Notes under the pieces: model-generated | What the model was told of the DNA's origin: nothing | What the model saw: only the letters and a program-made list of their open reading frames with translations | Databases searched by the model: none | In this document: positions 1,189 to 50,289 of the stretch, piece after piece | Layout of the letters: every line of letters begins with the position of its first letter | How positions within the stretch are numbered: position 1 is the stretch's first letter | From: Schmidtea polychroa | Lineage: Eukaryota | DNA: 64,000 nt | Assembly: GCA_044892525.1 (NCBI GenBank) | Contig: CM097885.1 | Span: 16,990,001-17,054,000, forward strand | Direction: 5' to 3' | Position numbers and translations under genes: made by a program

Positions 1189-4100
1189 TTAGACCAGTCG
1201 TAATTGATTTATAATTATTTCTGCAGTAATGCTTTTTAACATTAATTTATGTGATTTAAAGTCTTCTGGTGTTAGTCCTTGGATATATTCAGGATCAGTA
1301 TTAAAATATTTAAGTTCTATAGGTTTTATATTTTGAACTTGATTATATAAAGGTTTAGGAATTAATATTTCAGGATATTGGATTTCTACTTTAGCAAGTT
1401 GAAGGTCTGTAATCTCTAGGTTATAAATTTCATTTATTTTATCAAGATTTTTTATTATAGGGATTAAATCATTTCCAATAGGTAATGTTGTCTTCAAGTC
1501 AGAAAGTATAAATCTTTTATCATCATAATTTGTTATAGCAATCTTGTTACACTCTTCAAGATATATATTATGTTTCTCTGATTTAAGATGATGGGTTTTA
1601 GCAATTTTATTTTTATAATTTATATTTAATGAATCTTTATACTCTTGATGTGTGAAGGTTTTTGACACTGATTTTTGAATTCCTTTACTTTTATTTTCTT
1701 TATAGCTTTTCGGGTTTTCAGGGAATGAAGGATATTCAAATGTGTGATCTATTTCAACAGATCCTTCTCCCTCCCCTATTATAAATTTTATTGTATGCTC
1801 TTTCATAATTGGTTTGTCTTTCATTTCAAGAGAATATTGTTTAGGTCTAATAAACACTCCTCCACTTATTGGAGTATTTGGTTTTTCATCTTTAAAAGTA
1901 AATAATTCTCCAGAGTTGTTTATTAATTTATTTAAGGTTTCGTTTTCACTTATTTCCTTTTTTAAATCTTTACTATGACCTTTTAAAAACATACTATCAG
2001 TGTCCATAGCATGCATGGATATTCGATCTCCAAAATGTGGTACTAGAACATCATAGTAGGCTTCATACATTTGAAGCTTTGAAAGTTCTAAAATTGAAAA
2101 CCCTATAAAGATTGGTTTATTATAAGTTTTTACAGAGTTTTTAATCTCTATGGCTATAAGGTTACTAGAGAATATCTCGGCATTTTTAAATGTGGGCTTT
2201 CCAATTATCCGGTTGTACCTATTAAGGTCTTTGGATGTATTGGTCAAAAGCTCTACACGTGTGTACTTGTCTATATTCTCCATGGTCTTTCCAAAGACCG
2301 CATTGTTCAGGAGTTTGTAAATCATATCAAGAAATGCATTTCCAGCTCTCTTTGCTGCATTTCTTTTCAAAATATTTCCCTCTATGAATTTTTTCATAAA
2401 AGGGGCTTGTCGAAATTTAATAATGGAATGTACTTTTTTTAAAACCATTCCATGGGAGAGATAAAACTGAAGGAGTCTATAATGACAAAGGTAATCAGTT
2501 TTATCGGTCTGATCGCATAAAAGTTTTATACAGGGCGATCTATCCTGAGCCATCTGCCAGTCTGAAAGTTCTTCAGTCGAGATCTTTCTTCTTACTGGAG
2601 CAAATGGAAAGAATCTTGTCCTGGATTTTATTTCATTGGGATATTCAAGATCGCATTCTATGACATATCCAAATTGAGAATCTTTTGGTGTTTTTAGAAT
2701 TTCTTGTATTAATTCCTCAGTGGGCTCTTCCCAGGTGAACTTGCCAATTGGAAGGTATTGAGTCATTACTCCCGCATATAAAGCTGTTGCATCTATATAC
2801 ATTATTTCAGAAGGATTAGAAAGACCTTCCATTATTTCCTTACGATCTTCTGGGTTTGTTATTTCTACATATAGAGCATCAGGATCTTTGAAAAATTTAG
2901 GATAAAGAGTTGTAAAATTATTAGCATTTATTTCTCTATTCCCTTGTACTGAAGAAATACCTCCTCTAATATTATGTTTATATACATTAAACATATCAAG
3001 CTCAACTAATAATTCAATAGTTTTATTTCTTACTGCTACATCTTCATCAGTCCATATGGTATATAATAATATATCCCAAGCTAGAGAGGGAGCGGTTATA
3101 TAATTATAAGGTTTTAATTCAAAAGCTTTTGAAAATGTCTCGAAGCAATCAGCTAAGATATAAACATCCAAGGAAAGATACATGTCAGTATATTCTCCAA
3201 GGTTTCTACAGTTGAATAGATTCCACATTTTAACTGCACGGGAATATTCCTGATCAGAAATCCCTGATTGTGTTAAAACAGAAAAGAAATCTTCTTGGGG
3301 TGGGAGTAATTCATTATATTTTTCAAAGGAGTCTATATAATCATATGGATAGATTCCTTTTGCTAGACAGGTATTATATTCCTCTAATGGAATATTGTTT
3401 TTTAATAACACATGTTCTTTTGTATATTTAAAATCCTCAGGGTTCATAGTTTTAGCAATCCCATCCAAAGACATCCCTAAGAAATTTAACGAGTCCAAAA
3501 ACTTAAAGCATCCATATTGAATGCTTTTATATTTTTCTTTTGTAAGTCCAATAACCTTGAAAGAGTTTTTAGCATTTGCGGCCAGATGCTTAATGAATAG
3601 GTGAATATCATAGCCAAAAAGATTGTGAAATATAAATGGTATGTGTGTTGGTTTTTTACAATTGAGATTACATTTTTTATGGGCTGCTCCTCTGTAATTA
3701 TTTTCTCTTTTAAAATGATCATGGTCTGCAACCTTTGGCTCCTCATCCTCAAACTCTTGTTTACACATCCAGCAGTGTGTTGCATTTTTATATTCTTCCT
3801 CTTGTTCTTCTGAAAAATTCATAGGAAAGTTGGATTTTAATATTATATATAATTCATGTTCTAGATTATTTAAAGTTTTAACAAAATGATCTAGAGTCTC
3901 TTTGTCAGAAGTTCCTCTAAATGAATATTCTCTAGATTCTACAAGTTCTGGATAATTACTTTTAAAAAACATTTTATAAGCAGAGGGTATTTGTTTTGTT
4001 AGTTTTACAGTATTAGTTTTTGTTCGTCTTAGTTTTACATTTATAGCTTCAAAATCACAATAAACCACTCCCAATGCTTCTAATAGATTGGAATAGTTTT

Positions 4101-5568
4101 TAAACCTCATATTAGCATTTTTCTTGTGTGGCATTTTTATTAAAGCAGGTTGATTCTTACAACAGAGTCTCTCATGTTTAATAGCAGCAAGTTTTGAACT
4201 TGAATGATATAAACATCTTTTACAACATATGCCTCCACGAATGAGTGTGTTTCCTTTCATAAAACTTTGAAAATTCTTTATTAAGATATAATGAAGTTTT
4301 TTATCTAACATAGTGCCTCCGGACGCAGTGCTTTCTGCTTCTGGTTCTAATGAAATGCCTTCTTCTGCTTCTCTCCTCGGGTGAACGCTTTGAACCTCTT
4401 CACCATATTCTTCTCCATCAAAGTCTTCATCTGGTTTACCTTCTTCTAATATTAAAAGATCTACTTCTCTCTTTTCATCTGAGATTTCCATGTTAGAAAT
4501 GTAAATAGGAATAATGTGTTTATAATTTTTATTTTTTCTAGTTTTTGTAATTTTGGTTGGAATGAATTGATAAATATTAATTTTAAGATTATTTAATTTT
4601 TCAAATGCTGGAACATCTTCAATTTTCATTGGGTGGGAAAAATCTTTTGGATAAATTAATTCAGATTCATATTCTTCATATTTTTGAACTCTCTGTGGGT
4701 TAGTTGCTTGAGGATGTAAGTGTGCAAGTATTGACCATTGAAAACATTTATTATCTTTATTCTGTACATTAATAACATGGTTGGAGGTGAATGGTGTGTG
4801 AATAAAAGATTTAGGATTTGGTGGTGCGCCTCTCCAGTATTCAATCTCTATATTTTGAAAAGAGTGGAATCTTAAATTAGATTCTCCTAGTTCTTGTTCC
4901 ACCTGTTCTTGTTTTTCTTCCAATTCTTTAGCTATATCATTAACAAGTTTATTTCCTGCTTTTGTAGAAAATAAATATTTATATGAGGTTTCAATTTTTA
5001 CATCTAGAGGCATTGCGATTGAATCATCTCCTCTCCAGTATTTTGCATTTCCTGTAAATTTAACTTTTATAACATTAAATCTTGATCTACCAAATTTTTT
5101 TATAGCATCATCCATTGATGATATTATTTTTTTTTTATTTTCTCTTATATATTGCATGATTGATCTGGGTCCTCGTTTTACTTCTGCAATTACATCGGTG
5201 TGATTGAAGTCATCCCAATTAAACTCTAGTTTTTCAGCTTTTTCAGTCATTGAGTTTGAATCAGAATCTTTTGCTTCAAGACCACAATCTTCTATGTGTC
5301 TTAAGTAAAAAGATTTTATCCTCATCGTTTTTCCACATGCTGAACATTCGAATATTTCTCTGTTTTTAGGAACTCCAATACAATTTTTAAAATGCTTCTT
5401 ATAACCTGAAAATAAATATCTATCCTTACATTTAGTACAGATTTTGGAATTAGTGTCATCTAGTGTGTTAGCTTTTATTAAATGGTCTTTTGATTTTTTA
5501 TGAGATGTTAAAGCAGTTTTATTTTTAAAATTTTTTTCACAAATTTCACAATTGAAAATAGCTTCCAT
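1189..5568 (-). CDS. Protein-primed family B DNA polymerase (Polinton type) with N-terminal C2H2 zinc fingers and an HNH/Endonuclease VII insertion
   Basis: Exo motifs YCDFE and FHNLFGYD; CWMC...DHDH...RGAAHKKCN; polymerase motifs YIDATALY, KLLNNAVFGK, MDTDS; C-terminal DDKR. Uninterrupted 1459 aa. Confidence 0.95.
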   Translation of the reverse strand: MEAIFNCEICEKNFKNKTALTSHKKSKDHLIKANTLDDTNSKICTKCKDRYLFSGYKKHFKNCIGVPKNREIFECSACGKTMRIKSFYLRHIEDCGLEAKDSDSNSMTEKAEKLEFNWDDFNHTDVIAEVKRGPRSIMQYIRENKKKIISSMDDAIKKFGRSRFNVIKVKFTGNAKYWRGDDSIAMPLDVKIETSYKYLFSTKAGNKLVNDIAKELEEKQEQVEQELGESNLRFHSFQNIEIEYWRGAPPNPKSFIHTPFTSNHVINVQNKDNKCFQWSILAHLHPQATNPQRVQKYEEYESELIYPKDFSHPMKIEDVPAFEKLNNLKINIYQFIPTKITKTRKNKNYKHIIPIYISNMEISDEKREVDLLILEEGKPDEDFDGEEYGEEVQSVHPRREAEEGISLEPEAESTASGGTMLDKKLHYILIKNFQSFMKGNTLIRGGICCKRCLYHSSSKLAAIKHERLCCKNQPALIKMPHKKNANMRFKNYSNLLEALGVVYCDFEAINVKLRRTKTNTVKLTKQIPSAYKMFFKSNYPELVESREYSFRGTSDKETLDHFVKTLNNLEHELYIILKSNFPMNFSEEQEEEYKNATHCWMCKQEFEDEEPKVADHDHFKRENNYRGAAHKKCNLNCKKPTHIPFIFHNLFGYDIHLFIKHLAANAKNSFKVIGLTKEKYKSIQYGCFKFLDSLNFLGMSLDGIAKTMNPEDFKYTKEHVLLKNNIPLEEYNTCLAKGIYPYDYIDSFEKYNELLPPQEDFFSVLTQSGISDQEYSRAVKMWNLFNCRNLGEYTDMYLSLDVYILADCFETFSKAFELKPYNYITAPSLAWDILLYTIWTDEDVAVRNKTIELLVELDMFNVYKHNIRGGISSVQGNREINANNFTTLYPKFFKDPDALYVEITNPEDRKEIMEGLSNPSEIMYIDATALYAGVMTQYLPIGKFTWEEPTEELIQEILKTPKDSQFGYVIECDLEYPNEIKSRTRFFPFAPVRRKISTEELSDWQMAQDRSPCIKLLCDQTDKTDYLCHYRLLQFYLSHGMVLKKVHSIIKFRQAPFMKKFIEGNILKRNAAKRAGNAFLDMIYKLLNNAVFGKTMENIDKYTRVELLTNTSKDLNRYNRIIGKPTFKNAEIFSSNLIAIEIKNSVKTYNKPIFIGFSILELSKLQMYEAYYDVLVPHFGDRISMHAMDTDSMFLKGHSKDLKKEISENETLNKLINNSGELFTFKDEKPNTPISGGVFIRPKQYSLEMKDKPIMKEHTIKFIIGEGEGSVEIDHTFEYPSFPENPKSYKENKSKGIQKSVSKTFTHQEYKDSLNINYKNKIAKTHHLKSEKHNIYLEECNKIAITNYDDKRFILSDLKTTLPIGNDLIPIIKNLDKINEIYNLEITDLQLAKVEIQYPEILIPKPLYNQVQNIKPIELKYFNTDPEYIQGLTPEDFKSHKLMLKSITAEIIINQLRLV

Positions 5569-5712
5569 TTTTAAAAGAATCTTTTGGTTGGATACGATGT
5601 TTTGGTTTTGATATTAATTTTTATTTTTTTTAAATCTAAAAGTGATCAGGCGACCTAGATCATTATGAATTAGGTAATCTGATATTCTTATAACATTAAA
5701 TCCTTAAGACCA

Positions 5713-10883: not shown

Positions 10884-10987
10884 ACAATGGGTGCTAATCC
10901 TCCATTGCCCGACATTAAATTTAATTTTAAATCTTCTTGTTGTAATGGAGAAGATTTGGACGAACCCAGAAGACGAAGCCGGTTTCG

Positions 10988-11237
10988 GTGGAGTGGAGAT
11001 TTCCAACAAGAGCGTATAAAACATTTGGTATTGACGATTTATGGCAAATGGATTTGATGGAGATGATACCTTATTCGAAAATTAACAATGGGAATAAATA
11101 TATTTTAACATGTATTAATGTATACAGCAGGTTTGCACGAGCAATACCAGTCAAGGCTAAATCTGCAGAAGAAATGTCCAAGGCAATTAATATTTTATTT
11201 AAAGATGGACATCCTAATAACTTGCAAACAGATTTGG

Positions 11238-11273
<36 letters not shown>

Positions 11274-11917
11274 TTATTATTATTTTAGGTAAAGAATTCT
11301 ACAATAGCAAAGTTAAGCAAATCCTCTATAAACTGAAAATAAATCACTACTCGGTACATTCTCAATACAAAGCTGCCCATGTTGAAAGATTTAATCGAAC
11401 ATTGAGAGATCGATTAAAGAAATTGTTCGTGCATCAAAGTAATAAAAAATGGGTAAATGCTTTACCGAAAATAATAACAAGTTATAATCATTCATCACAT
11501 CGAGGACTGAATGGATTGAGACCGGTTGATATTACATCAAAAACATCATTGACTTCTAAGAAATCTGTAAAAATTACAAAACCTAAATATAAAGTCGGTG
11601 ATCATGTTAGAATTAGTAAAATTAGTGCATCACCATTTATTAAAAATTTTGATACAAATTGGAGTGATGAAGTCTTTGTAATTTCAAAAATAAATACTAA
11701 ACAGAATCCTGTAATGTATGTCATCAAAGACAATGATAATAATATTGTACAGGGGAAATTTTATGAGCAGGAATTACAAGTCATTCCTCCCCCAAAAGTA
11801 TTTAGAATTCAAAAAATATTGAAAACTAAAAAGGTCGGTAAGGATAAACAATACTATATCAAATGGCACGGTTATCAAAACCCGTCATGGATATCGTCAA
11901 AAGACCTAGTAAAATGA
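10988..11917 (+). CDS. Retroviral-type (rve) integrase with C-terminal chromodomain; 51-nt intron at 11238-11288; N-terminus apparently truncated
   Basis: WQMDL, LQTDLG/KEF, VERFNRTLR (DDE triad); chromodomain-like IQKILKTK...YYIKWHGY...SWI. Confidence 0.93.
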
Positions 11918-23947: not shown

Positions 23948-25012
23948 TATTATTATTATTATTATAGCTTTTAGATGTGGAGAAAATTTAATTATTCAAA
24001 GCATAGAAAATAATAAACATTTAACATTTAAAAATTATAAGAAATATAAGTAAATTAAATTCCATAATATTATTAAATTCTATAGTGTAATAAATATCAA
24101 AACTAACACTTGACATTTTCGCAGAAAATGCGACAGTAAATCAATACTTTTGGAAGAATTTCCCTAGTCCATTAGTGTGGATTTTCCAATTTTGTATTTT
24201 AAAGACTGTATTAAGCCTATTAAGTCCGCATATTCACATAATTCAAGAGATTTGATGTAATTAAAGAAACAATATAAAAGTAAACAAAAAACTCAAAAAA
24301 ATTATTCGACTTTTGATTTTTCTTATAATGCATCAAAATAACTGAAATACTAAGACAATAAAGTGATATAATGAATAAATGTTTGATCATTAAAAGACCA
24401 CTCAAACAACTGTTTTACGATATATTTTGGCAGGGTCACTGTTATCATCAGATAAGAAAGAAAAACTATAGATGCAATAGATATTCAAACAAATTATTTG
24501 CCTAATTTAATTACCCACAAATAAAATATCATTTATATCATATGAAAAAAGTCTGTAGAAATATCGTGTGCCTTACAAATTTTTTGATCTAGTCTTACAA
24601 ACAACTGTATTGCGTATTTCGTCTATGACAAGCAGAACTTTGGTTTATATTGATTTTGTTATAAACCAACCTTTTGTTGGGCTGAGTCGAAAACTTAATT
24701 GTTCAAAAGTAGGAAAATAAGAAAGTAGGACGTTAAAGAAAATAAAAATAAAATAAGCAAAATTAAGAATAAAATAGAATAAGATATAAGGAAAAAACAA
24801 TAATTAGGAAATAAGGATTAAAACAATAAATAAAAATAAGAAAAATTAAAATAGAACAATAAATTGACGAATAAATGATGTAAAATTTAATAAATAATAA
24901 GGAAATTAAGGAAATAAATAGAAAATATATTAAAAATAAAGGAAATAAGGAAAAATAACCAAAAAACAGGAAAAAGTAAATTAAATTGAAAAAATAAGCG
25001 GTACTCAATTCT

Positions 25013-25075
25013 GATTGGTCCGCATAAATGAAAAATTATTATATAAGCAGGCACCAAAATCATAAAAATCAGTGT
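25013..25075 (+). promoter_or_regulatory. Pol II promoter of the LTR-like element: inverted CCAAT, TATA and Inr
   Basis: GATTGG, then TATATAA at 25040 and TCAGT at 25069. The same order recurs at 29229-29290 and 52771-52820. Confidence 0.75.
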
Positions 25076-25533
25076 TAATTCAAAAACTTCATAGGTAAGT
25101 AAATTTTAAATATCATGCAGTGTTAATTCAAAAACTTCATAGGTAACGATCCAGAGACAGCCGCGACTCAAAATCAATTCAACGTTACATTTGCAATAGA
25201 AATCGACACCCGAAGAGTTACAGAATCCGAAATCAGCAGACTATTTTGTTTGAAAACCGAACATTATATTTTCGACTCAGCCTAATTCAATAGTAAGGAG
25301 ATTTTCTTTATGGTATTTATTTTAGAAGTTAATCGTACTTATGCATATTTGATGAATAATTAAAATCTTAATTTAAAGCAGTTTTCCTTTTCATTTGATC
25401 CCCCGTAATGATTTTAATAAAGTAAATGATTTAAATGTCTAAAAGTATTTACTAGTAACAAATGAATCATTGAGTAATTTTTATGATTAGTTTTTATGAA
25501 TTATCATTTTTCTGTGTTTAACTTAATGAGGAA

Positions 25534-25671
25534 CGTGGAGTTGAGATACTCCATGTCATGGTGTGAGGTGCCTTCAGGAGCTCAGCCGGTGGACATGGAG
25601 TTTTTCAATCACGCAGCTAGATTGGGCCGAAATGTGAAGGCTTCTTCACGGGTCCAATCGCTGAAGGTGAC
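25534..25671 (+). ncRNA. Structured cis-RNA element A, copy A (homolog at 29756-29892)
   Basis: Two hairpins with compensatory changes between copies, plus loop GCCTTCAG complementary to downstream CTGAAGGT. Confidence 0.65.
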
Positions 25672-27044
25672 TTAAAAAATATAGAAGAATGGAAACGAAG
25701 GAGAGTAGTGACATCTAATTAAATGAGATAGTCGTAGTAGTAGTGATCCACAGTGACTGAGCGAGTCTAAAATCTTCACATCTGCGATAGTTCTGTAGCT
25801 CTCGTGTTTTGGCAGTCTATTATCATCATCAGCTTTAGATTCCAGACAGTGTAATTTCGCTAATAGGGCAAGTATCATCTATTAACCAATTACTTTGATT
25901 TCGAAATAGCCACTCCCACTCAATTTCAACAATGAATCCAATTTAATAGTACTTAGCCTGACAGTAAGACAGTAGAATATAAGATCATCGAAAATTGAAA
26001 TTGAAAAATAAGTCAATACACGTGAAACATCTTTTATTTAAGTACAAAGGGAAAACAAATTTTCGAAATACCTGTATATGAGCCAATGTGTAAAACATTT
26101 TCTTCATTTAACTCCCAAAACAGTCGCCATCAACCAAGTAAGATAAGTAAAGACACCCAGAATGGTTTAATGAAACTTCCTCGAATGCGATATATCCAAT
26201 AATAGCGACGAGAGAGAATTTACACTTGAATTTAGACTAGTCGAGTGTAATCTAACACCAGTAAACAAATCCAGAATGCTATTCGTATTAAAATTCAGTA
26301 GAGCCACTATATTCGCCTGCGCGCACACACAAGTATTATGAGTCCAGTAGCAAATCCATATGGGATATCCATCAGCGATAATACAGTAAGTTATCAATCA
26401 TACTTGCGTGAGAAAATTTCCATACGTCACCCCGTTAGGTTTTTCCTGTGATTTGAATCAGCAGTAGGTAAATTCGCATTGAGCAATTACCCTGAGAGAC
26501 TCCACCCAGCACGCAGCATTCAGTTTCCAACTATAAGATAAAATCATCAGCCAGAGAGAAATTCACGCGGATTACTGATAACCGAAAGCGTGCAGTTGTA
26601 TAATTTAAGTCCAAAGTTTGGAACTTCTAAATTTAATCTGTATAACTAACGATTAACTAAACCCGCGGAATCTACCGAATTTTCATATTAGATAATTATC
26701 TTTTGTAAAGTAGTTAGTAATTTGATTTTGAGCTCTTGAATGTGATTTAACATTTTTAGGTAAAATTTAACTATTACTCATTTCACTTAATAGGTAGAAC
26801 TTCCATTTTTTTTTGTATTACCTTCCTTTGACAAAGTTATATTGTCGGTTGATATCTTTTAGTAAATAATTAATCTAAAGGGAATAAAGATCGATCTTCT
26901 AGGGAAAAGATCCTCTTGTCAGCCGACCCGGTTCCCTTTCTTGTCAGAATATCTGGGACATTCAACGAATAATGTGTCGGAACAATGATCTTATAAAATT
27001 AGTTTATCTCGTTTAGATTTATCTCTTCTTTATAGCCATCAGAT

Positions 27045-27792
27045 ATGCTACCAAACGCCAGACCGGCACTCAAACCCTGTTTATCTTGCTCAGATAAGAA
27101 TGTAGTGATCAAAGACTTACAAGCCCAGATAGGCCGTTATAAGAGAAAAATAGATGAGTTGGAGGGCACCTGGTTTAGCCCCACTCAAATGAAGGAAATC
27201 CAGAAGAGATTATATCGAAGTGAACATTGCCGTGACGCTCTAATCTCCGAGAGCCGGTCACAAAGAAGCTTAATAAAGGAGCAGTCCGAGGCCCTGCACA
27301 AGGTGTACCTGCAGGCGGCCACCACTAGAAAAATCGTAACTATCCCTATTCGCGAAGCCGATGAGCTTTTTCCGGCGCACCATGATACTTCTGCCAAATG
27401 GCCGTCTTCTTCCAAGAAATCTTGCCGACAGTGTGTAGAAACGGAACTCACCAAAAGACCCAGATCTCATCATCACGGGAACGAGCAGAGCACAAAGTGA
27501 AAGCACACCTACTGATACTGTGCCACAGAGGGATCAATCAACGTCGAAACCGAAGCGTAAGCAGTTATCGCGGGCAGAGCGTAAGAGACGACAGCGCGAA
27601 CGAGCAAACATCCAGCAAAGCACCACAGTGATGGAACCCCCAACTCCCCGAAACGTCAACCCAGCGGTGGTAGATCTAACTACCGGGATCTCCGCACGGA
27701 TTATCTCGGCTGCTGGCGTAGTATGGGAGGAATATGCCTCCGAATTTTTCGACATCGACGAATTATTACGGGATACCGAGTGGGAAAAATGA
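27045..27792 (+). pseudogene. LTR-encoded unknown protein, copy A (frameshifted near 27450-27500)
   Basis: KPCLSCSDKN...GTWFSP...SEHCRD, then KPKRKQLSRAERKRRQRER...FDIDELLRDTEWEK in a second frame. Splice acceptor TTTATAG just before the ATG. Confidence 0.8.
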
Positions 27793-28056
27793 GTAACTCC
27801 AGCAGAAAGCTCAGTGACTATCACCTCTATTATTAGCATCATATGTGATTCTCTGTCATACCATCCATCTGTACATATGGATCTTCTGTTGTTTTGTGTT
27901 TTGAGAATGAAATACATTTATTCCTGTTCCATTTATTTATTTTCGTTAGTGAGGGTTAGGCATAAAATTATATACGGATTGTTTGAAGTTTGATGAGTGT
28001 CAGCCAATTTGCATTCGATCTACCGGTAATGAGAGATTTGGATAATACGAAACGAC

Positions 28057-28200
28057 GTAAGACCTTCTATCGGCCGTCTAGTGTGGGAAGTCGAGACCTC
28101 AGTAAGGAGTAGTTTTAAGGCAGAAGCTCACCTGCTTACTGGCGTCTCGCCGGCATAGTGCAGTACCAACGTGAAGCAGTTCACAGGCACTATGTTGGAA
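28057..28200 (+). ncRNA. Structured cis-RNA element B, copy A (homologs at 32401-32545, 48345-48490, 56387-56525)
   Basis: Strongly conserved non-coding block; stems covary across four copies. Confidence 0.65.
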
Positions 28201-28920
28201 TGCGAGTTATGCGGGGTCCTACTCAGTGTTGGAAAGAGGAGAGGATTTTTGGTAGAGTGGGCAATCAACCCTTAGACTAGCCACAAATGAAATAGCCAAC
28301 CGAGTAAGCCACCCCAGCACTTTTATATATGACAAAAATATATTCTTATGCGGCTGGGAAAAACATAAAATAATAAACTGAAAAAAATAATAATAGATCC
28401 GTATTTTGTACACAAAAGTTACATTAGACTATAAGAAAATTTAAATCGTGTGTTAGAAATAATTCAAGAGAAAATGTTGTCTTTAAAGGGCCAGGAGAGT
28501 TGAAGCACTTACTCTTGGAATAAAACACAGGACATATTTTTTTAAAGGTTCTTAAAAATGGTGTTTTAATTTTATGAAGTGAAACAATTTACATTGCATT
28601 TATTGAGAAATCAGTAGTCATTTTTTAATAAATACAATGTCAATTGAAAAGAAATCAGAGGTGAAAATCGAAAGAAGTTTTTACGAAACAATTTAGTTCA
28701 AGCAAATTTGAAAAGGTTGAAAATAGATTCTCACAACATTTGTCAAAATTGGTATTCGGTTGCATGACTAATGATGATAAATTCAAGTCGATAATCATAT
28801 TAAAAAACGATTCTGAAGGACAATTTTATAACAACAATTGTAGAAAAGACATATCCTAAAGGAATTTAGGTTTATTGTATTTTTAATATAATTTAATAGA
28901 AAAAAATGAATTTATGCTAC

Positions 28921-31900
28921 TGTTGGGCTGAGTCGAAAACATAGATTGGAGATTAGGACAAACAAGATGTTAAATAAAATAAAAATAAAGCAAACAAATT
29001 TAAAAATAAATTAGAATCAAAATACAAAAGAAACAATAATTAAAAAATAAGAGTTAAAACAAAGAATAAAAAATAAGAAAATTAAGATAAGAAAAATAAA
29101 ATAACGTAAAATTCAGTAAATAATGAGGAATTAAAGAAATAAACAAAAAATATAATAAAAATAAGAAGAAATAACCAAAAAACAGAAAAAGTAAATTAAA
29201 TTAGAAAAACTAAGCGGTACTCAATTCTGATTGGTCCGCACACATGAAAAATTAATATATAAGTAAGCACCAAAATCATTAAAATCATCGTTAATTCAAA
29301 AAATTCTATAGGTAAGCAAATTTCGAAAGTATCAACCACCGTTAATTCAAAAAATTCTATAGGTAAATCCAGAAACCGCAGCGACTCACAATCAACCGAA
29401 ATTAGCCAAAGCATAATTAGTAATAGGAATCAACATTCAAGGAACCATCAGGATTTGAAATCGAACAGACTATCTTCAAAGACGAACAATTCATTTTCGA
29501 GTTAGCCCTCAAACCGATAACGATAGTAAGGAGATCTTTTATTTTTGAAAAGTTAATAGTAATCATGGATATTTGTTAAATAATTAAAATTTTGGTTTAA
29601 TGCGATTTTTTCTTCATTTGATCCCTTGTAATAATTTTAACTAGGTTAATGATTTAAATGGCTAAATGTAATTACTAACAATAAATGAGTTATTTCAAAG
29701 TTTTTATGATTTGTTTTATGAGCTGATATCTTATGATTTTAATTCTTATGAGAAACGTGGTGTTGAGACATTTCATGTCATGGTGTGAGGGGCCTTCGGG
29801 AGCTCAGCCGGTGGACATGAAGCTTTTCAATCACGCAGTTGATTCGGGCCGTAATGTGGGGGCTTCCCCACGGGTCCGTCACTGAAGGTGACCTAAACTC
29901 AGTTAGAATAGCAGCATATAGGGTGCATAATAGATTCTAAATCAAAAGAAAAGTAAGATTTACGATTTCACAGTGATTGAGGGAGTTACCATCTTTGTAC
30001 CTACAATGACTCTACCACATTAAGCATCATTCTTCGAGAAATTCATGCTATCACCATCTGTAAATCGGAATCTCTAATGTTACATTAATAATTCGATTAA
30101 CACTCATCTCTAACGAAATTATCCAACGTTGAGCTCTCCTTTTATCCTTCGGAAAATGAACCGATTCGAATTTTCACCTTTACATCTTGATGATCATATG
30201 ATAGAATTCAATAACAACATTTACGTAAAAATGGAAAAAATAATACTATATGTATATCAATATTTTATTTAAGTACATTCATAAATTAATTTCCGACTAC
30301 CTGTGTAAACGTTCTCTATGTGATCCATTCCGAATGACCATAGCTGAAATGAAATTGATAGACATCTAGAGAGTTTAGAAATTCCATCGTTAAGTATATC
30401 CAGCTCTAGAGAAATTACGACTTGTACTAACAAATTCCAACATTGCAAGTTAGATGAGAACTGACAGACGATGAATACGGCACCTAAAATATTCTCTAAT
30501 ACCACATGTGAAGTCAAGTAGAAATTCCACCGAATAGCACACGTGCATGTATATATTGTAACTGCGATTAGCGATATCCATATGTGAGTATGCGCGAGAA
30601 ATAGCATAATCAATGAGCAACCATTCACAGTAGGGAATTTCACCATGTGTCACACCCGATAGAATTTTTCATCTTTGTGAATAGTAACGGGTGAGCGTAT
30701 TAGATAACAGCTACCATGAGGTGCGACACTCAGGTTGTTGATTCTCAGATTTTTGTTTTGGATAAAAATCGTTTGTGTCGTTATCGAGATAAATTGAATA
30801 ATCAATAGACGATTACCGAGGTATGAAAATCCTTAAAGTCCACTTATTAGAAAATTGTAAATTAAGTGTTATAAACGACAATAGAAATTTTAATTAATTA
30901 TGATAGATAATAATCGAAATTTTAAACCAAATGCTGTAAATAATAATTAAACTTAGACAGATTTACCCATATAACTCCTTAGGCATTCACGTATGAACAT
31001 CATCAAGTGGGAAAAGGGAAAGTTTGGGGGAAGTAACTAGCGCTGTATATTTTAATTTTTGATCTAAAACATGATTTAGCAATTTCAAGAGAGATTAAGG
31101 AGTTAATAAATTCACTATTGTGGAATTTTCATACTTAATTTGTATTCGTCAAGACAATGATATAGGCGATTAATTAATATTTTGTAAATAAGGTACAAAG
31201 TGATAGCGATCAACCGTCTGGGGGGCGGAATTTTCCTCATCTGCTTGTCCTGTTTTCTTCCCTTGCCGAATATCCGACAGTGAATAAACAACTGCATCCG
31301 ATCAACGATTTTGTAAATGTAGTATATTCTGGTTATCATAGTTTCTTCTTTACAGCTATCCAACATGCTACCGAATGCCAAACCTGTACTACGCCCTTGC
31401 TTCTCCTGTTCTGACAAAAATTCTATTATCAAGGATTTGCAGTCCCAGATCGGTCGATACAAAAGGAAAATCGACGAACTGGAAGGCATATGGTTCAGCC
31501 CAGTGCAAATGAAAGAGGTACAGAAGAAGTTGTACCGCAGTGAACATTGTCGTGACGCTCTAATCTCTGAGAGCCGTTCCCAACGGAGTCTAATAAAAGA
31601 GCAATCGGAAGCTCTGCACAAAGTGTACCTGCAGGCGACGACTACTCGAAAGATCGTCAGTATCCCCATCCATGAAGCGGACAACATCTTCCCAGTGCAT
31701 CACGATACCTCTTCCAAGTCATCGTCTCCCTTCAAGAAGTCCTGTCGAGAGTGTGTAGAGACCGAGCTCTCACCTAAGCACCCGGACATCATCTTCACCG
31801 GAACCAGTAAGGCGCCACCCACCATTGCATCTACATCTGCAGCAACCCAGAATAGTCAGACGGCATCGAAACCTAAGCGACGGCAACTATCGAGGGCCGA

Positions 31901-32665
31901 ACGCAAAAAAAACAGCGAGAACGAGCGACCGCCAAACAGCACGAACAATCGGCGGGCAACCCGATTAACGTCAACAATTCCCCTTCAGTGATCGATCTGA
32001 CAACCGGGATCCCAGGGCGAATCATCTCCGCTGCTGGCGTAACCTGGGAAGAAAATGCCTTAGAATTTTTCAATTTGGACGAATTGTTAGCCGACACCGA
32101 GTGGGAAAAATGAGAATCCACGGTGGAGTGCTCTCAGCGATCGCAAATTTTCGGACTACGTTATCAATGTTTTCTTTCTTTTTCCTTTTCTCATTGAAGT
32201 ACATTTGTGGCGTATAAATTATCTGTGTTTGGTGTCATAAAATTGAAATAAACCATTTTTCCGTTTTTATATATTTTCCTGTGCGAGGATGTTCGGTATA
32301 GACTGTTTGTGAATATAGGTGAAAGCTTTCAAGGTTCAATGAGCGTTAACCAATTGCATCTAATACAGAGATAGTGAGGGTATGAATAATATGAATAGGC
32401 GTAAGTCCTTCTATCGGCAGTCAAGAGAAGGAAGTCGAGGCCTCAGTAAGGAGTAGTCCTAAGGCAGGGGCTCACCTGCTTACTGGCGTCTCGCCGGCAT
32501 GGTACATTTCCAACGTGAAGCAATTCACGGGTACTATGTTGGAGTATAGGTTGTGCAGGGTTCTGCTCGGAGTTGACAAAGTGATAGCTAACATATATGA
32601 AATGAACAATCATCTCTTAGACGAAAAGTTAAAATAGTTGGAGTCAACCGAGTAGCGCCCCAGCA
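28921..32665 (+). mobile_element. Giant solo-LTR-like element, copy B (3745 bp)
   Basis: TGTTGGG...CCCAGCA termini; TSD CTAC at 28917-28920 and 32666-32669. Confidence 0.92.
31365..32113 (+). pseudogene. LTR-encoded unknown protein, copy B (frameshift in an A-run near 31910)
   Basis: Homologous to copies A, C and D. The conserved tail RIISAAGVTWEE...LDELLADTEWEK is in another frame, ending at 32113. Confidence 0.8.
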
Positions 32666-45616: not shown

Positions 45617-48610
45617 AAAGTAACAGCCATATAGTGATTGAAGGAGTAGATGTATTAATCAAATGAAATGAAGAGTATTTGAGAGTTCACACAGTGATTG
45701 AGGGTGTCACACTATTAAATCGTCGGACCGTCTTTGCTAAGCTTGGAGTATCTCTATTATCTGGAAAAATCCAAACAATGGTTTATTGAATTCGTCTGAA
45801 AATTAGTGTCATCTTATAGGATATATTATCTGAGGGCATAATGATTGTGGCATAATTGCGAAAGGTACGATAGTCTATGCAAATGAGCAAATTCCAATCT
45901 TGGTATAGCATAGCGAGTAGTCGAATGTCAGCATTTTTTTTGAGTTGTTTTCCAGAGATCGTCGAGATATTCGGTAAAATCCCAGTCGATGTTGATGACG
46001 ATGATGAAATTCCATAATGAAAGCTGGCAACAGCATAGATCGGAAGTTTCCGTAACTAATCATACGGTGAGAATCATGCGACATATGGAATAACGAAATA
46101 TCTGTGAAACTAACATCAATTAGATAAAATCACAATATTCAGTTTCGATAATAGATCGACAGCATCAAAGTTCACGTTAGATAAGACAAAGGAGAATGCA
46201 TGCAGCACTAGTAAATCCACTCATGCACTAGGCAACTTTCGCCATGACTGTCACAAGCACACACACCGATTCATAACGAGCTAATCGACATACGAGTATA
46301 CCAGTAGCCAAGGCATAGCACTAATGATTTATTGGTAGATGAGTTCACACACACCACAAACATAGCGACCGTTATCGGCAAAGATCAAGCCGCTAAAAAT
46401 TCCTTCACTCACAATTTCATGTTATCTTGAGCAGGTAAAGCCCAACGTGAGTGAGAACAAACCTGATAGATTGGATCAGTGAACTTTAGATCCAAAACAC
46501 TAGTCGGATGATTTTTGGTTACTCCAATATTTAATGCCTTTAGTCGAGTCAAATTTTCATCTAACCCGTCTGGTTGATTGAATCGTTGTTTTTCGTTGCA
46601 TTAAATTAATAATAGTAATCGGCTAACTTATAATGTAATATTAAATTAATAGTTTAATGTAAATATATCTCGCTGATCTAACCATTTTACTAAACCAACT
46701 TTAACTTAATCTCAATCGTTTAATAATTCTATTTGGGTTTATCTCATTTACTTCATAATTTCGTTAAATGGGCGTTTTAAGTAACCATATAAATTTCAAA
46801 TCAATGATGATAAGCAATCCACCAAAATTTCGATTAGATGTTATAACGTTTTTTATTGCCAGAACATTATTGTCTTATTACTATTAGATTACTATTATTA
46901 ATATTATTACACATTATAAACCCTCAAACAACCAAGTATAAAAACTGTCAAGTGGGGAAAAGGGAGAAGAGTCTTGGGGGTAGCTAGCGCCGATATCGCG
47001 TAATTATCAATCTAAAAATGAAATCTAGTATTTGTAGTAAATTCTTAGAGTTAGTAAATGCACTCAATTGAAAGAATAAAAATCTCCCAGTTAATTCATT
47101 TGCATTCAAGTCACCTGTATTCAGCATTAGTTAAATTTTGTAAATCATGTATAGGGTAGAAACGAGTCGACATCTTAACAATTCCTTTACCATCTAATCT
47201 GTTCTTCTTTTTCTTTTGAATATCCAAGGTAGTAACTGAGTAGTGGCACCAAATGTATGACATTTCGAATATCATATCTTAATCTCACCTTTATAGCTAG
47301 CCAACATGATGCCAATTGCCAAGCCCGTTTTACGTCCCTGCTTCTCCTGCTCGGACAAAAATGCAATTATCAAGGACCTGCAGACCCAGATTGGGCGATA
47401 TAAAAGGAAAATAGATGAGTTGGAGGGCACATGGTTTAGCCCCACTCAAATGAAAGAAATACAGAAGAAGCTATACCGTAGCGAACACTGCCGGGACGCT
47501 CTAATCTCTTAGAGCCGCTCACAAAGGAACTTGATAAAAAAACAATCCGAAGCGCTACACAAAGTGTATCTGCAGGCGTCAACCACGCGAAAGATAGTCA
47601 GTATCCCCATCAATGAGGCCGACAATCTCTTTCCGGCACACCACGACACCTCTTCTAAGTCGTCGCCTCTTTCAAGAAGTCCTGCAGAGAGTGCGTAGAG
47701 ACCCAGCTCTCGCCCAAACAACCAGACATTATTTTCGTTGGAACGAGCAAAGCGCCACCTGCGATCGCTTCTACATCCACAGTACCTCCAACTAATCCAA
47801 CGACATCGAAGCCAAAGCGTCGGCAATTATCAAGAGCCGAACGTAAAAGGAAGCAGCGGGAACGAATAACCGCCAAACAGAATACACAACCGACGGAACT
47901 TCTAAGTGAAGTCAGCGCCCATTCGGTAGCAATAGGTCCGACATCAGGAATCTCAGGGCGAATTATCTCCGCCGCTGGAGTAACTTGGGAGGAAAACGCC
48001 TCCGAGTTTTTCGATTTAGATGAGTTACTAGCGGATATGGAGTGGGAGAAATAAGAATGCTCCCGTGAATTGACCCTATCGTCCGGAACATTGTCGAACC
48101 GAGTTTATCGTGTCTTTCTTTCCTTGTTTTTCTCTCATCCCGATATCTCTGTTGTATGTAAATCATCGGTGTTTTATATGTTTAATGTTACAATAAACAA
48201 TTTTATGTCTTTACATCATTTTCGTTTGTGAGGAATTCAGTATGACTGTAATAAATAGAGTTGAGTGTTCTCGAAATTCAAGGAGTATCAGTCAGTTTGC
48301 ACATAAACCAGAGGTAGTGGAGTGGATTGATAATTCGAATAGACGTAAGTCCTTCTATCGGCAGTCAAGAGATGGAAGTCGAGGCCTCAGTAAGGAGTAG
48401 TCCTAAGGTAAGGGCTCACCTGCTTACTGGCGCCTCGCCGGCATAGTACAGTTCCAACGTGGAGGAATTCACGGGTACTATGTTGGAGTATAGGTTATGT
48501 GTGGGCTCTGCTCGGGATTGACAAAGTAATGACGAGCATAATCGGAATGGGCATTCATCTCCTAGGCCAAAAGTTGAACTAATGGTGGTCAACCGAGTAG
48601 TGCCCCAGCA
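45617..48610 (+). mobile_element. Giant solo-LTR-like element, copy C (5'-truncated)
   Basis: Homology to copy B starts just after structure A; carries the ORF and structure B; ends CCCCAGCA. Confidence 0.85.
47306..48054 (+). pseudogene. LTR-encoded unknown protein, copy C (TAG at 47510, frameshift near 47665)
   Basis: RPCFSCSDKN...GTWFSP...; KPKRRQLSRAERKRKQRER...FDLDELLADMEWEK. Confidence 0.8.
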
Positions 48611-50289
48611 TTACAAAACGCATAAGACGAATAAAAATATCATATTATCTTAATAAATATTATCCAATAAGATATTATTTTATTTTTTGTAACAATGTAC
48701 CCAAGACGTATATATACGCTAGCGGATAACAATACTCGCCACTGAGGAGCGCATTTCGATTGACGAAATAAACCACTTAAGAGGTTAAATTCAAAATCTA
48801 TTGTTTCACTACTATTTCACTTTGAAAAAGATTTACATGACGATGTATTTTTTAAAGCCAGAGCATCAGAAGTAAATTTTTGGGAGTATTTTTGTCGAGA
48901 GAAGTATTCAAACAAAAAAATGTAATGAATATATCCGTTTGTTTTGGATCCACTTATTTATGTTGATCCGCCCTTTATTATTTAAACCATACAAAAACGA
49001 ACCATCGTTCCTGTCTTACAGACTTGTACAAAACAGATTCATTAAGACTCATTGTCAAATTACACTCATGTATTTGAGAAATTGGAACAGGTTATGATTA
49101 CACAAGTATCACATTAGAATAATAGTTTTTATTCTTTCTATTTCTTTTCCCTTTCTTATCATTAAAAATTTAATTGAGTTTATTTTGTTTTTAATTTTTT
49201 ATATTAATTTAATGGTTTTTTAATTAAAATTTATTACATTTGAAGTTTTTTCTGTAAATCAATTATTTTATTTTATAATGCCAAAGTCGATGGCAAATTA
49301 AAATAAGTTTGGCAACCCTGTTATAAAATATATATTAAACGATGAATTGTGCAAATTAGCTTAATAAAAATTTAATTTAATGTTTTTTATTGGTTCGTTC
49401 TTATATTAAATGACTTATGAAATCAAAGAAATAAAATTATTCAAAAGCTTCTGAAGCTATAACCTCCTTTGAAGTAACCTCTCACGGACAGAATTTCTAG
49501 TGCAGTAGTATATTGGAATTAGCTAGGAACCAAAAGTTACAAATTTGTAAAAACACCACTGCAGACAAAAAAAATCTATTTTTCTATAATAGACCTTATT
49601 TGATGTATTTATTCTGCCTATAATTGGTGAGCTTCGACAAAGCAGTATAAAATTACAATTCTTCGCGCGAGACATGAAATAAGTGTTATAATAATGAATA
49701 TATTAAAAATGATAAATTATAATAATTAAATACAATTTAATAAATAAATTATTTTTTCATCTAAAATATATTATTATAGTATTTCCTAAAGTGACAATTG
49801 ATAAACTTACTTTAAAAATTTACTATTGAGGCCGATTTTCATTAATCTGAAAATAATTTCATCTTCAGAGCTTAAATTCAGAAAACCATTTACTAAAAAT
49901 TCTCGCAATTCAAATTTGACTAATAAAATTAACAATTTAATCATTACCTAAAATTTAATTTTTGATGCAATATATGTAATGGCGGCATTAATGCCTTAAA
50001 TTATTTAAATTCTTACCTGTAGCAATAAATTTAGGTCATATAGTAAATATTAAAATGAAAAAAAATCCGTGTAGTAAAACAAATATGTAAATTAAATTTT
50101 TCTTTCTAAATTGAAACATCATTTAAAAATTAGTTATTTTAATATAAAATATGTATTATTTTGACTTTAAATTTTTCAATATCATACAATCCATTTAATA
50201 TAATAATTACATTTAGTATATTAAAATTAAATTTAGAAATAATATATATAAAAATTGACATTTTATTTTAAACATTTATATTAAAACTC

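Follow-up and report, generated by a model that had tools for sequence, protein, structure and literature searches.

A compact two-armed RNA structure is encoded in the long terminal repeats (LTRs) of a giant retrotransposon, and comparison among its copies gives good support for a functional RNA whose fold is preserved by selection. The host is a Burro/GYPSM1-type, env-bearing Ty3/Gypsy element, and its LTRs also encode an arginine-rich protein that is under selection. Our preferred reading, held tentatively and with slightly more doubt than belief, is that the RNA works as the binding site of this protein, as the response element (RRE) does for Rev in HIV. More tentative again is the broader proposal that Burro elements evolved, independently of vertebrate complex retroviruses, a Rev/RRE-type switch contained entirely in the LTR, with one donor, a near and a far acceptor, and a family-specific two-armed RNA and arginine-rich regulator that diverge together. 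The puzzle addressed is how giant LTR elements bring a 30-kb, partly unspliced RNA past the poly(A) site of the 5′ LTR and export it from the nucleus; if the binding is real, an invertebrate Ty3/Gypsy element would possess an RNA switch under protein control. Our literature search, which drew on parts of PMC6431247, PMC4588558, PMC8532177, and PMC5035971, returned no description of such an RNA or switch in invertebrate Ty3/Gypsy elements; the original Burro account (Grohme 2018) fell outside its scope and may cover LTR features.

Model R1 has only two strong matches in the 64-kb window (the whole stretch of DNA analyzed, to which positions refer), copy A at 173.8 bits and copy B (29756..29889, + strand) at 166.9 bits. 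Arm 1 of copy A (25534..25613, +) is a long stem whose length is constant and whose middle varies in sequence, with a conserved internal loop and an apex that is UUCG in most copies, while arm 2 (25614..25663, +) abuts it without a linker and consists of an internal loop and a terminal GUGRRG-GYUU hairpin. The original prediction, made from these two copies, had described a stem, a hairpin, an apical loop, and a tail, and each is present where it was placed: the stem at 25549-25557/25592-25600 in copy A and 29771-29779/29814-29822 in copy B, the hairpin at 25634-25649 and about 29856-29871, the loop at 25570..25577 (+) and 29792-29799, and the purine-rich 3′ tail at 25661..25668 (+) and 29882-29889, the first 3 nt of the tail also closing arm 2. 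Copy A forms a pair of neighboring long hairpins (z = -5.64, 0/200 shuffles as good) and copy B folds at z = -2.18 (5/200 shuffles as good), with weaker folding on the minus strands of both. GC content is 53% over copy A vs. 22.5% upstream and 37.5% downstream. The GC-richer island reported previously is real, but it is part of a high-copy LTR rather than confined to two copies, and the double compensatory change noted for copy B's small hairpin is present but rare (G-C at that pair in 2/69 distinct copies, G.U in 34). In the A1 and A2 alignments arm-1 and arm-2 types combine in mixed fashion, which suggests recombination at the arm junction.

Genome-wide collection of copies and a larger alignment, both proposed with the original prediction, uphold the covariation. 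Three patterns made mutually exclusive by their tails matched 470, 156, and 122 times in the 781-Mb genome, which has four large contigs, with 0 matches for each reversed control, so that the genome contains at least 748 copies of the RNA. Among 69 distinct copies, 12/47 pairs have changed on both sides and 98.3% of cells remain paired; 170 cells are changed on both sides vs. 62.6 in shuffles, and controls in which the pairing was slid are 36–49% paired. The lower helix of arm 1 contributes 9/21 pairs changed on both sides, with 98.4% of its cells paired. An independent set of 60 stretches (2.9 kb fetched) was chosen by the LTR-encoded gene, which avoids selection by the RNA itself. Forty-eight of these contain the RNA on the same strand, and where the ORF is intact the RNA lies mostly 1.5–2.2 kb upstream of it; the remaining 12 have no RNA match inside the 2.9 kb, and many carry other repeats there. 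The 41 distinct copies in this set, in an alignment fitted to the model, again have 11/47 pairs changed on both sides, including 8/21 in the lower helix of arm 1.

Conservation and phylogeny point in the same direction. Identity among the 48 LTRs is 0.87–0.88 over the RNA vs. 0.55–0.61 in the adjacent flanks, at a divergence where the neighboring LTR gene has saturated synonymous sites. On a tree of 159 distinct copies, pairing is kept in 97/123 changes on inner branches vs. 125/224 changes at the tips, and one subfamily with a bulge that shifts the register explains part of the failures. Covariation in two sets, the conserved island, and a distant family (E, below) with the same fold bear out the earlier claim of a functional RNA structure. 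That claim had come with no recognized family, and indeed no Rfam family matches at gathering or E-value thresholds; Pol III, Sm-site, box C/D, or H/ACA motifs are absent or sporadic in 143 copies. A metagenome pattern scan gave 119 stretches, of which 80 were fetched; none matched R1, and we take these pattern matches to be chance hits. A likeness of the CTCAGCCGG segment to a primer-binding site was also considered and dropped, since several active subfamilies change the segment yet keep the stem.

These data bear on two readings that we consider very improbable. One is a small-RNA precursor or a stabilizer of the excised intron: arm 1 is an 80-nt hairpin, and a miRNA family matches weakly (E = 2.2, 16 bits vs. 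a cut-off of 80), but variability is highest in the middle of the stem, the expected site of a mature small RNA, and it is the loops and junction that are conserved. The other, a new class of self-cleaving ribozyme, had been offered in the original prediction. The compact two-arm shape, the constant arm length, and a possible tertiary contact would suit a ribozyme. The missing Rfam match, the hammerhead core order in 0/143 copies, and the replacement of loop sequences in family E all argue against one, as does the prospect that a cut near the 5′ end would sever the capped genome.

The proposed pseudoknot between apical loop and tail fares less evenly; a short contact of 3–4 bp seems possible, though we doubt it a little more than we credit it. 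Loop and tail of copy A are perfectly complementary over 8 bp, but this relies on a rare A found in 2/69 distinct copies, the apex being cUUCGg in most of them. The tail, described as invariant, instead reads GAAGAT in 156 copies and GAGGG in 122. None of the eight crossing loop-tail pairs covaries among the first 69 copies, and on the 159-copy tree pairing is kept in 8/19 inner-branch changes. In favor of the contact is the pair 25573-25665, which passes from U-A through U.G to C-G within one subfamily and once more in another lineage. Across all lineages of the 159 distinct copies it is U-A in 124, U.G in 16, and C-G in 11; mismatched C.A has three origins in small lineages (6 copies). Against the contact, 156 genomic copies have a disrupted outer pair 25571-25667, the loop C being the same in each of the 100 listed, which include many paired LTRs, and the family E loop is unable to pair with its own tail, although the strand beside that loop could. 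A C at the loop position concerned is also compatible with a YNMG tetraloop. About 30 bp separate the apex from the tail, and a contact within one molecule would therefore require a U-turn; docking of this kind would be in keeping with the unvarying length of the variable stem.

Both copies reside in solo LTRs. LTR A (24675..28319, +) is 3645 bp long, runs from TG to CA, is flanked by the target duplication CTTT, and has boundaries common to dispersed copies, with which similarity begins sharply at 24675; paired LTRs of full-length elements match it. LTR B (28921..32665, +; TG to CA, 3745 bp) belongs to another subfamily and has the target duplication CTAC, so that both show 4-bp duplications. 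LTR pairs 98.3–99.9% alike and 22–28 kb apart were found in 5/5 genomic regions examined. A primer-site-like sequence follows directly after the LTR and is presumably complementary to tRNA-Pro. Pfam searches of one element identified Gag zinc knuckles (CCHC), protease, reverse transcriptase, RNase H, integrase, ankyrin repeats, and a RING/MATH gene, with a Monjiviricetes-type, env-like fusion glycoprotein positioned between gag and pol.

This architecture is that of the Burro/GYPSM1 elements of planarians, giant gypsy-like LTR elements described in the parts of PMC6431247 used here, and the element type suggests that the host is a planarian. Shared features are a length of about 30 kb, a CCHC Gag, a mononegavirus-type fusion glycoprotein between gag and pol, the order PR-RT-RH-IN, and ankyrin and TRAF/MATH cargo. 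Those parts of the account include neither an LTR-encoded gene nor an RNA structure in the LTR, whereas both are present here. A third Burro LTR in the window (45620-48614) is 5′-truncated and has no copy of the RNA; immediately upstream of it is another repeat, with TGTTGGG as its first bases at about 44769. A segment 36 kb upstream (G000:C1:16977793-16980953, L002) is identical over 3161 nt to window positions 24025-27185, and copy B is duplicated likewise, reflecting either a recent segmental duplication or an assembly artifact.

The position of the RNA within the LTR can be read from transcription and splicing signals. A reverse CCAAT box and a TATA box (25013..25047, +) mark the promoter by their sequence, with the same spacing in the other copies compared. 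Sequence signals predict an exon 1 of about 25 nt and a donor AG/GTAAGT at 25095 (25070..25100, +), and a donor lies 53–58 nt past the TATA box in 93/132 LTRs with a located promoter. Likewise in 93/132, an exact repeat of the 25 nt preceding the donor lies about 48 nt downstream and has AG at its end; in LTR A this exact second copy of exon 1 (25118..25142, +) provides a putative proximal acceptor. The 5′ edge of the repeat is mostly at TATA+30/31. The duplication suggests a start site about 30 nt after the TATA box and a short intron removed from the 5′ end of the reverse-transcribed RNA. The repeats at 25070-25142 and 29290-29362 are alike within an LTR but differ from one LTR to another (22-mers only 55% alike), a pattern that would fit rewriting with every round of reverse transcription. 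In several LTRs exon 1 is present once and the donor is missing.

The RNA element begins about 400–520 nt after the TATA box, about 460 nt past the predicted start. Farther downstream, a polypyrimidine tract and AG (27020..27035, +) form a putative distal acceptor, found in the same layout before the start codon in intact ORFs; the LTR-encoded gene follows at 27045..27792 (+), and a poly(A)-signal position at 27911..27916 (+) reads AATACA in LTR A, AATAAA in copy B (32247), and AATAAA in 46/48 LTRs. Given this layout of donor, acceptor, gene, and poly(A) signal, splicing of a short LTR mRNA would remove the RNA as part of an intron, and genomic RNA would keep it. The earlier description of the structure as intronic fits its place between predicted donor and acceptor, but genome-length RNA has to include the element. 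Every reverse-transcribed LTR with the RNA has kept the intervening sequence, and a search of the genome with one narrow pattern gave 0 LTRs lacking the long intron. Contigs from presumed RNA runs that cover element and ORF show no splice joint or RNA end; they also cover the upstream repeat region and say nothing on expression.

Other parts of the LTR are also conserved. A second GC-rich block at the 3′ end (28032..28319, +; 81–92% identity among 48 LTRs) recurs at 32376-32665 and 48320-48614, lies just before the primer site, and has no Rfam match. Sequences at 25270-25283 and 29495-29508, about 200 nt past the start, are reverse complements of the first bases of the LTR, with a core found in most of the 48 LTRs, and could allow the two ends of the genomic RNA to pair. 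A short conserved motif at 25751-25761 and 29971-29981 lies about 80–110 nt 3′ of the RNA in diverged surroundings.

The LTR-encoded protein is the candidate partner. When intact it has about 247–249 residues; the gene is frameshift-broken in LTR A and likewise in LTR B (31365-32114), and is intact in 41/48 LTRs. Median dN/dS is 0.11 among 684 distant pairs of 820, with synonymous sites saturated (median pS 0.73), which argues for selection on the protein. Its alignment shows two CxxC motifs, long helices, an arginine-rich stretch, and an acidic-hydrophobic end. The basic stretch, with 10–11 K/R in 19 residues, is nearly invariant and is predicted as a helix (177-192), although the structure model as a whole has low confidence (mean pLDDT 57.8, pTM 0.22). 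No Pfam family, including REV (PF00424), matches at E <= 0.05; PDB sequences give no match, ESM Atlas matches are all under 0.9, and a word-based protein search gave 746 candidates with 0 at E <= 0.001. Ten distant relatives, mostly fused gene models, were found among 1.84 billion proteins (E 1e-8 to 3e-4). What they have in common is the N-terminal part, and in several of them arginine runs follow, at the same place as the basic stretch. One of the ten matches Pfam REV at E = 0.0013, below the cut-off, and any arginine run would give a similar match. A classical leucine-rich (CRM1) export motif is absent in 11/14 LTR proteins, and in the other three it is not at a shared place.

The RNA is located between promoter and donor on one side and acceptor on the other, and the gene that follows is under selection and encodes a conserved basic stretch; this leads us to favor a Rev/RRE-like role. 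Transcription would start about 30 nt after the TATA box in the LTR, and one donor could be joined to either of two acceptors. The near acceptor would remove about 48 nt and leave the RNA in place, giving genomic RNA; the far acceptor would remove the RNA, giving the regulator's mRNA, which would end at the LTR poly(A) site. The putative regulator would then bind the RNA on the genomic transcript and steer output from the short spliced mRNA toward unspliced genome-length RNA, through export, through intron retention or splicing, or through read-through of the 5′ LTR poly(A) site, in the layout of a feedback switch. With hundreds of natural variants of a compact RNA, a distant structural homolog, and a candidate partner protein, the proposal is testable with isolated RNA and peptide. 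Points against a Rev-like protein are the lack of a Pfam REV match, of a solved relative, and, in 11/14, of the classical export motif. We therefore do not class the system as a member of Rev/RRE, having found neither Rev homology nor an export motif at a shared place. The basic stretch could be merely a nuclear localization signal.

Three further readings draw on the same features. The CxxC motifs and acidic end suit a transcription activator equally well, and the RNA might be TAR-like, with the protein, which has a basic stretch besides, binding it on the nascent transcript and boosting transcription. Elements of the TAR type are located at the very 5′ end of the transcript, whereas this RNA begins hundreds of nucleotides past the TATA box (the 400–520 nt given above), and we judge this reading decidedly unlikely. 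A host-factor element, that is, an export signal like CTE or MTE or a control of splicing or poly(A) that needs no element-encoded protein, is not much more credible. Tertiary contacts are common in such elements, according to the parts of PMC4588558 used here, and the purine-rich internal loops are conserved, but such an element would explain neither why the transcription unit also encodes a conserved basic protein nor why loops and basic stretch have diverged in parallel in family E.

Location after the first donor suits a packaging signal equally well, and a packaging or dimerization signal is the alternative that we take most seriously, while still considering it unlikely. The RNA would be read by the Gag nucleocapsid or by a second genome copy, with loop and tail pairing between two RNA molecules. 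Splicing would leave it out of the LTR mRNA, the Gag protein contains CCHC knuckles, pairing across the length of arm 1 is demanding within one molecule, and the narrow single-pattern search for LTRs without the long intron was empty. However, the RNA is upstream of the primer-binding site, which the second conserved block adjoins instead, the apical loop is not self-complementary, and family E has no loop/tail complementarity. The setting, an LTR that belongs to an env-bearing retroelement and a place between predicted donor and acceptor, suits the original export or packaging reading as a predicted function.

The closest functional parallels to the Rev/RRE-like role come from retroviruses. 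General features of psi and dimer initiation signals serve as the comparison for packaging. As in the parts of PMC5035971 used here, the RNA is in the 5′ leader downstream of the first donor; it differs in being upstream of the primer-binding site and in having no palindromic loop. With Rev/RRE and Rex/RxRE (PMC4588558 and PMC5035971, in part) the RNA shares its character as a structured element on unspliced RNA, here predicted from splice signals, and a small regulator with a basic stretch, whose mRNA would be a spliced transcript of the same retroelement. In those excerpts the HTLV element, too, lies within the LTR. The differences, relative to the same excerpts, are that the LTR protein has neither sequence homology to Rev nor a classical export motif, and that the RNA is small, near the 5′ end, and hosted by a Ty3/Gypsy element rather than a vertebrate retrovirus. 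Export elements in the portion of the PMC4588558 review used here are mostly about 400–500 nt, vs. about 135 nt for this RNA. The MusD transport element and the MLV PTE, from that portion, are likewise cis-acting retroelement RNAs with multiple stems and proposed tertiary contacts, but they use host factors, measure 400–1400 nt, lie elsewhere in the genome, and have no sequence match to the RNA.

Family E emerged from a search with the distant relatives of the protein, and its RNA is a diverged homolog of the two-armed RNA at the same place in the LTR. It scores only 26–29 bits with model R1, is 52% identical to copy A (77/149 columns), and lies 340–480 nt past the TATA box in LTRs with a located promoter. 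The two-arm shape is the same, with 95.7% of cells paired and the terminal hairpin of arm 2 kept, while the internal loops differ; covariation within family E alone is weak (2/46 pairs). Families at 35–45% protein identity in the same genome keep a basic stretch of different sequence, that of family E having diverged, and 4 of the 40 stretches fetched around such families matched R1. Family F has another basic stretch and, at the corresponding place, two other conserved hairpins, one with a long variable loop, in six LTRs (L381, L383, L393, L398, L399, and L407), about 900–1250 nt into the LTR. At L376, L378, and L402, two LTR-gene homologs of different families occur within 6 kb, probably as nested insertions. 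Elsewhere in the window, a protein-primed type B DNA polymerase (1189-5613, −) and an integrase with a chromodomain (10946-11917, +) are typical of a Polinton/Maverick element.
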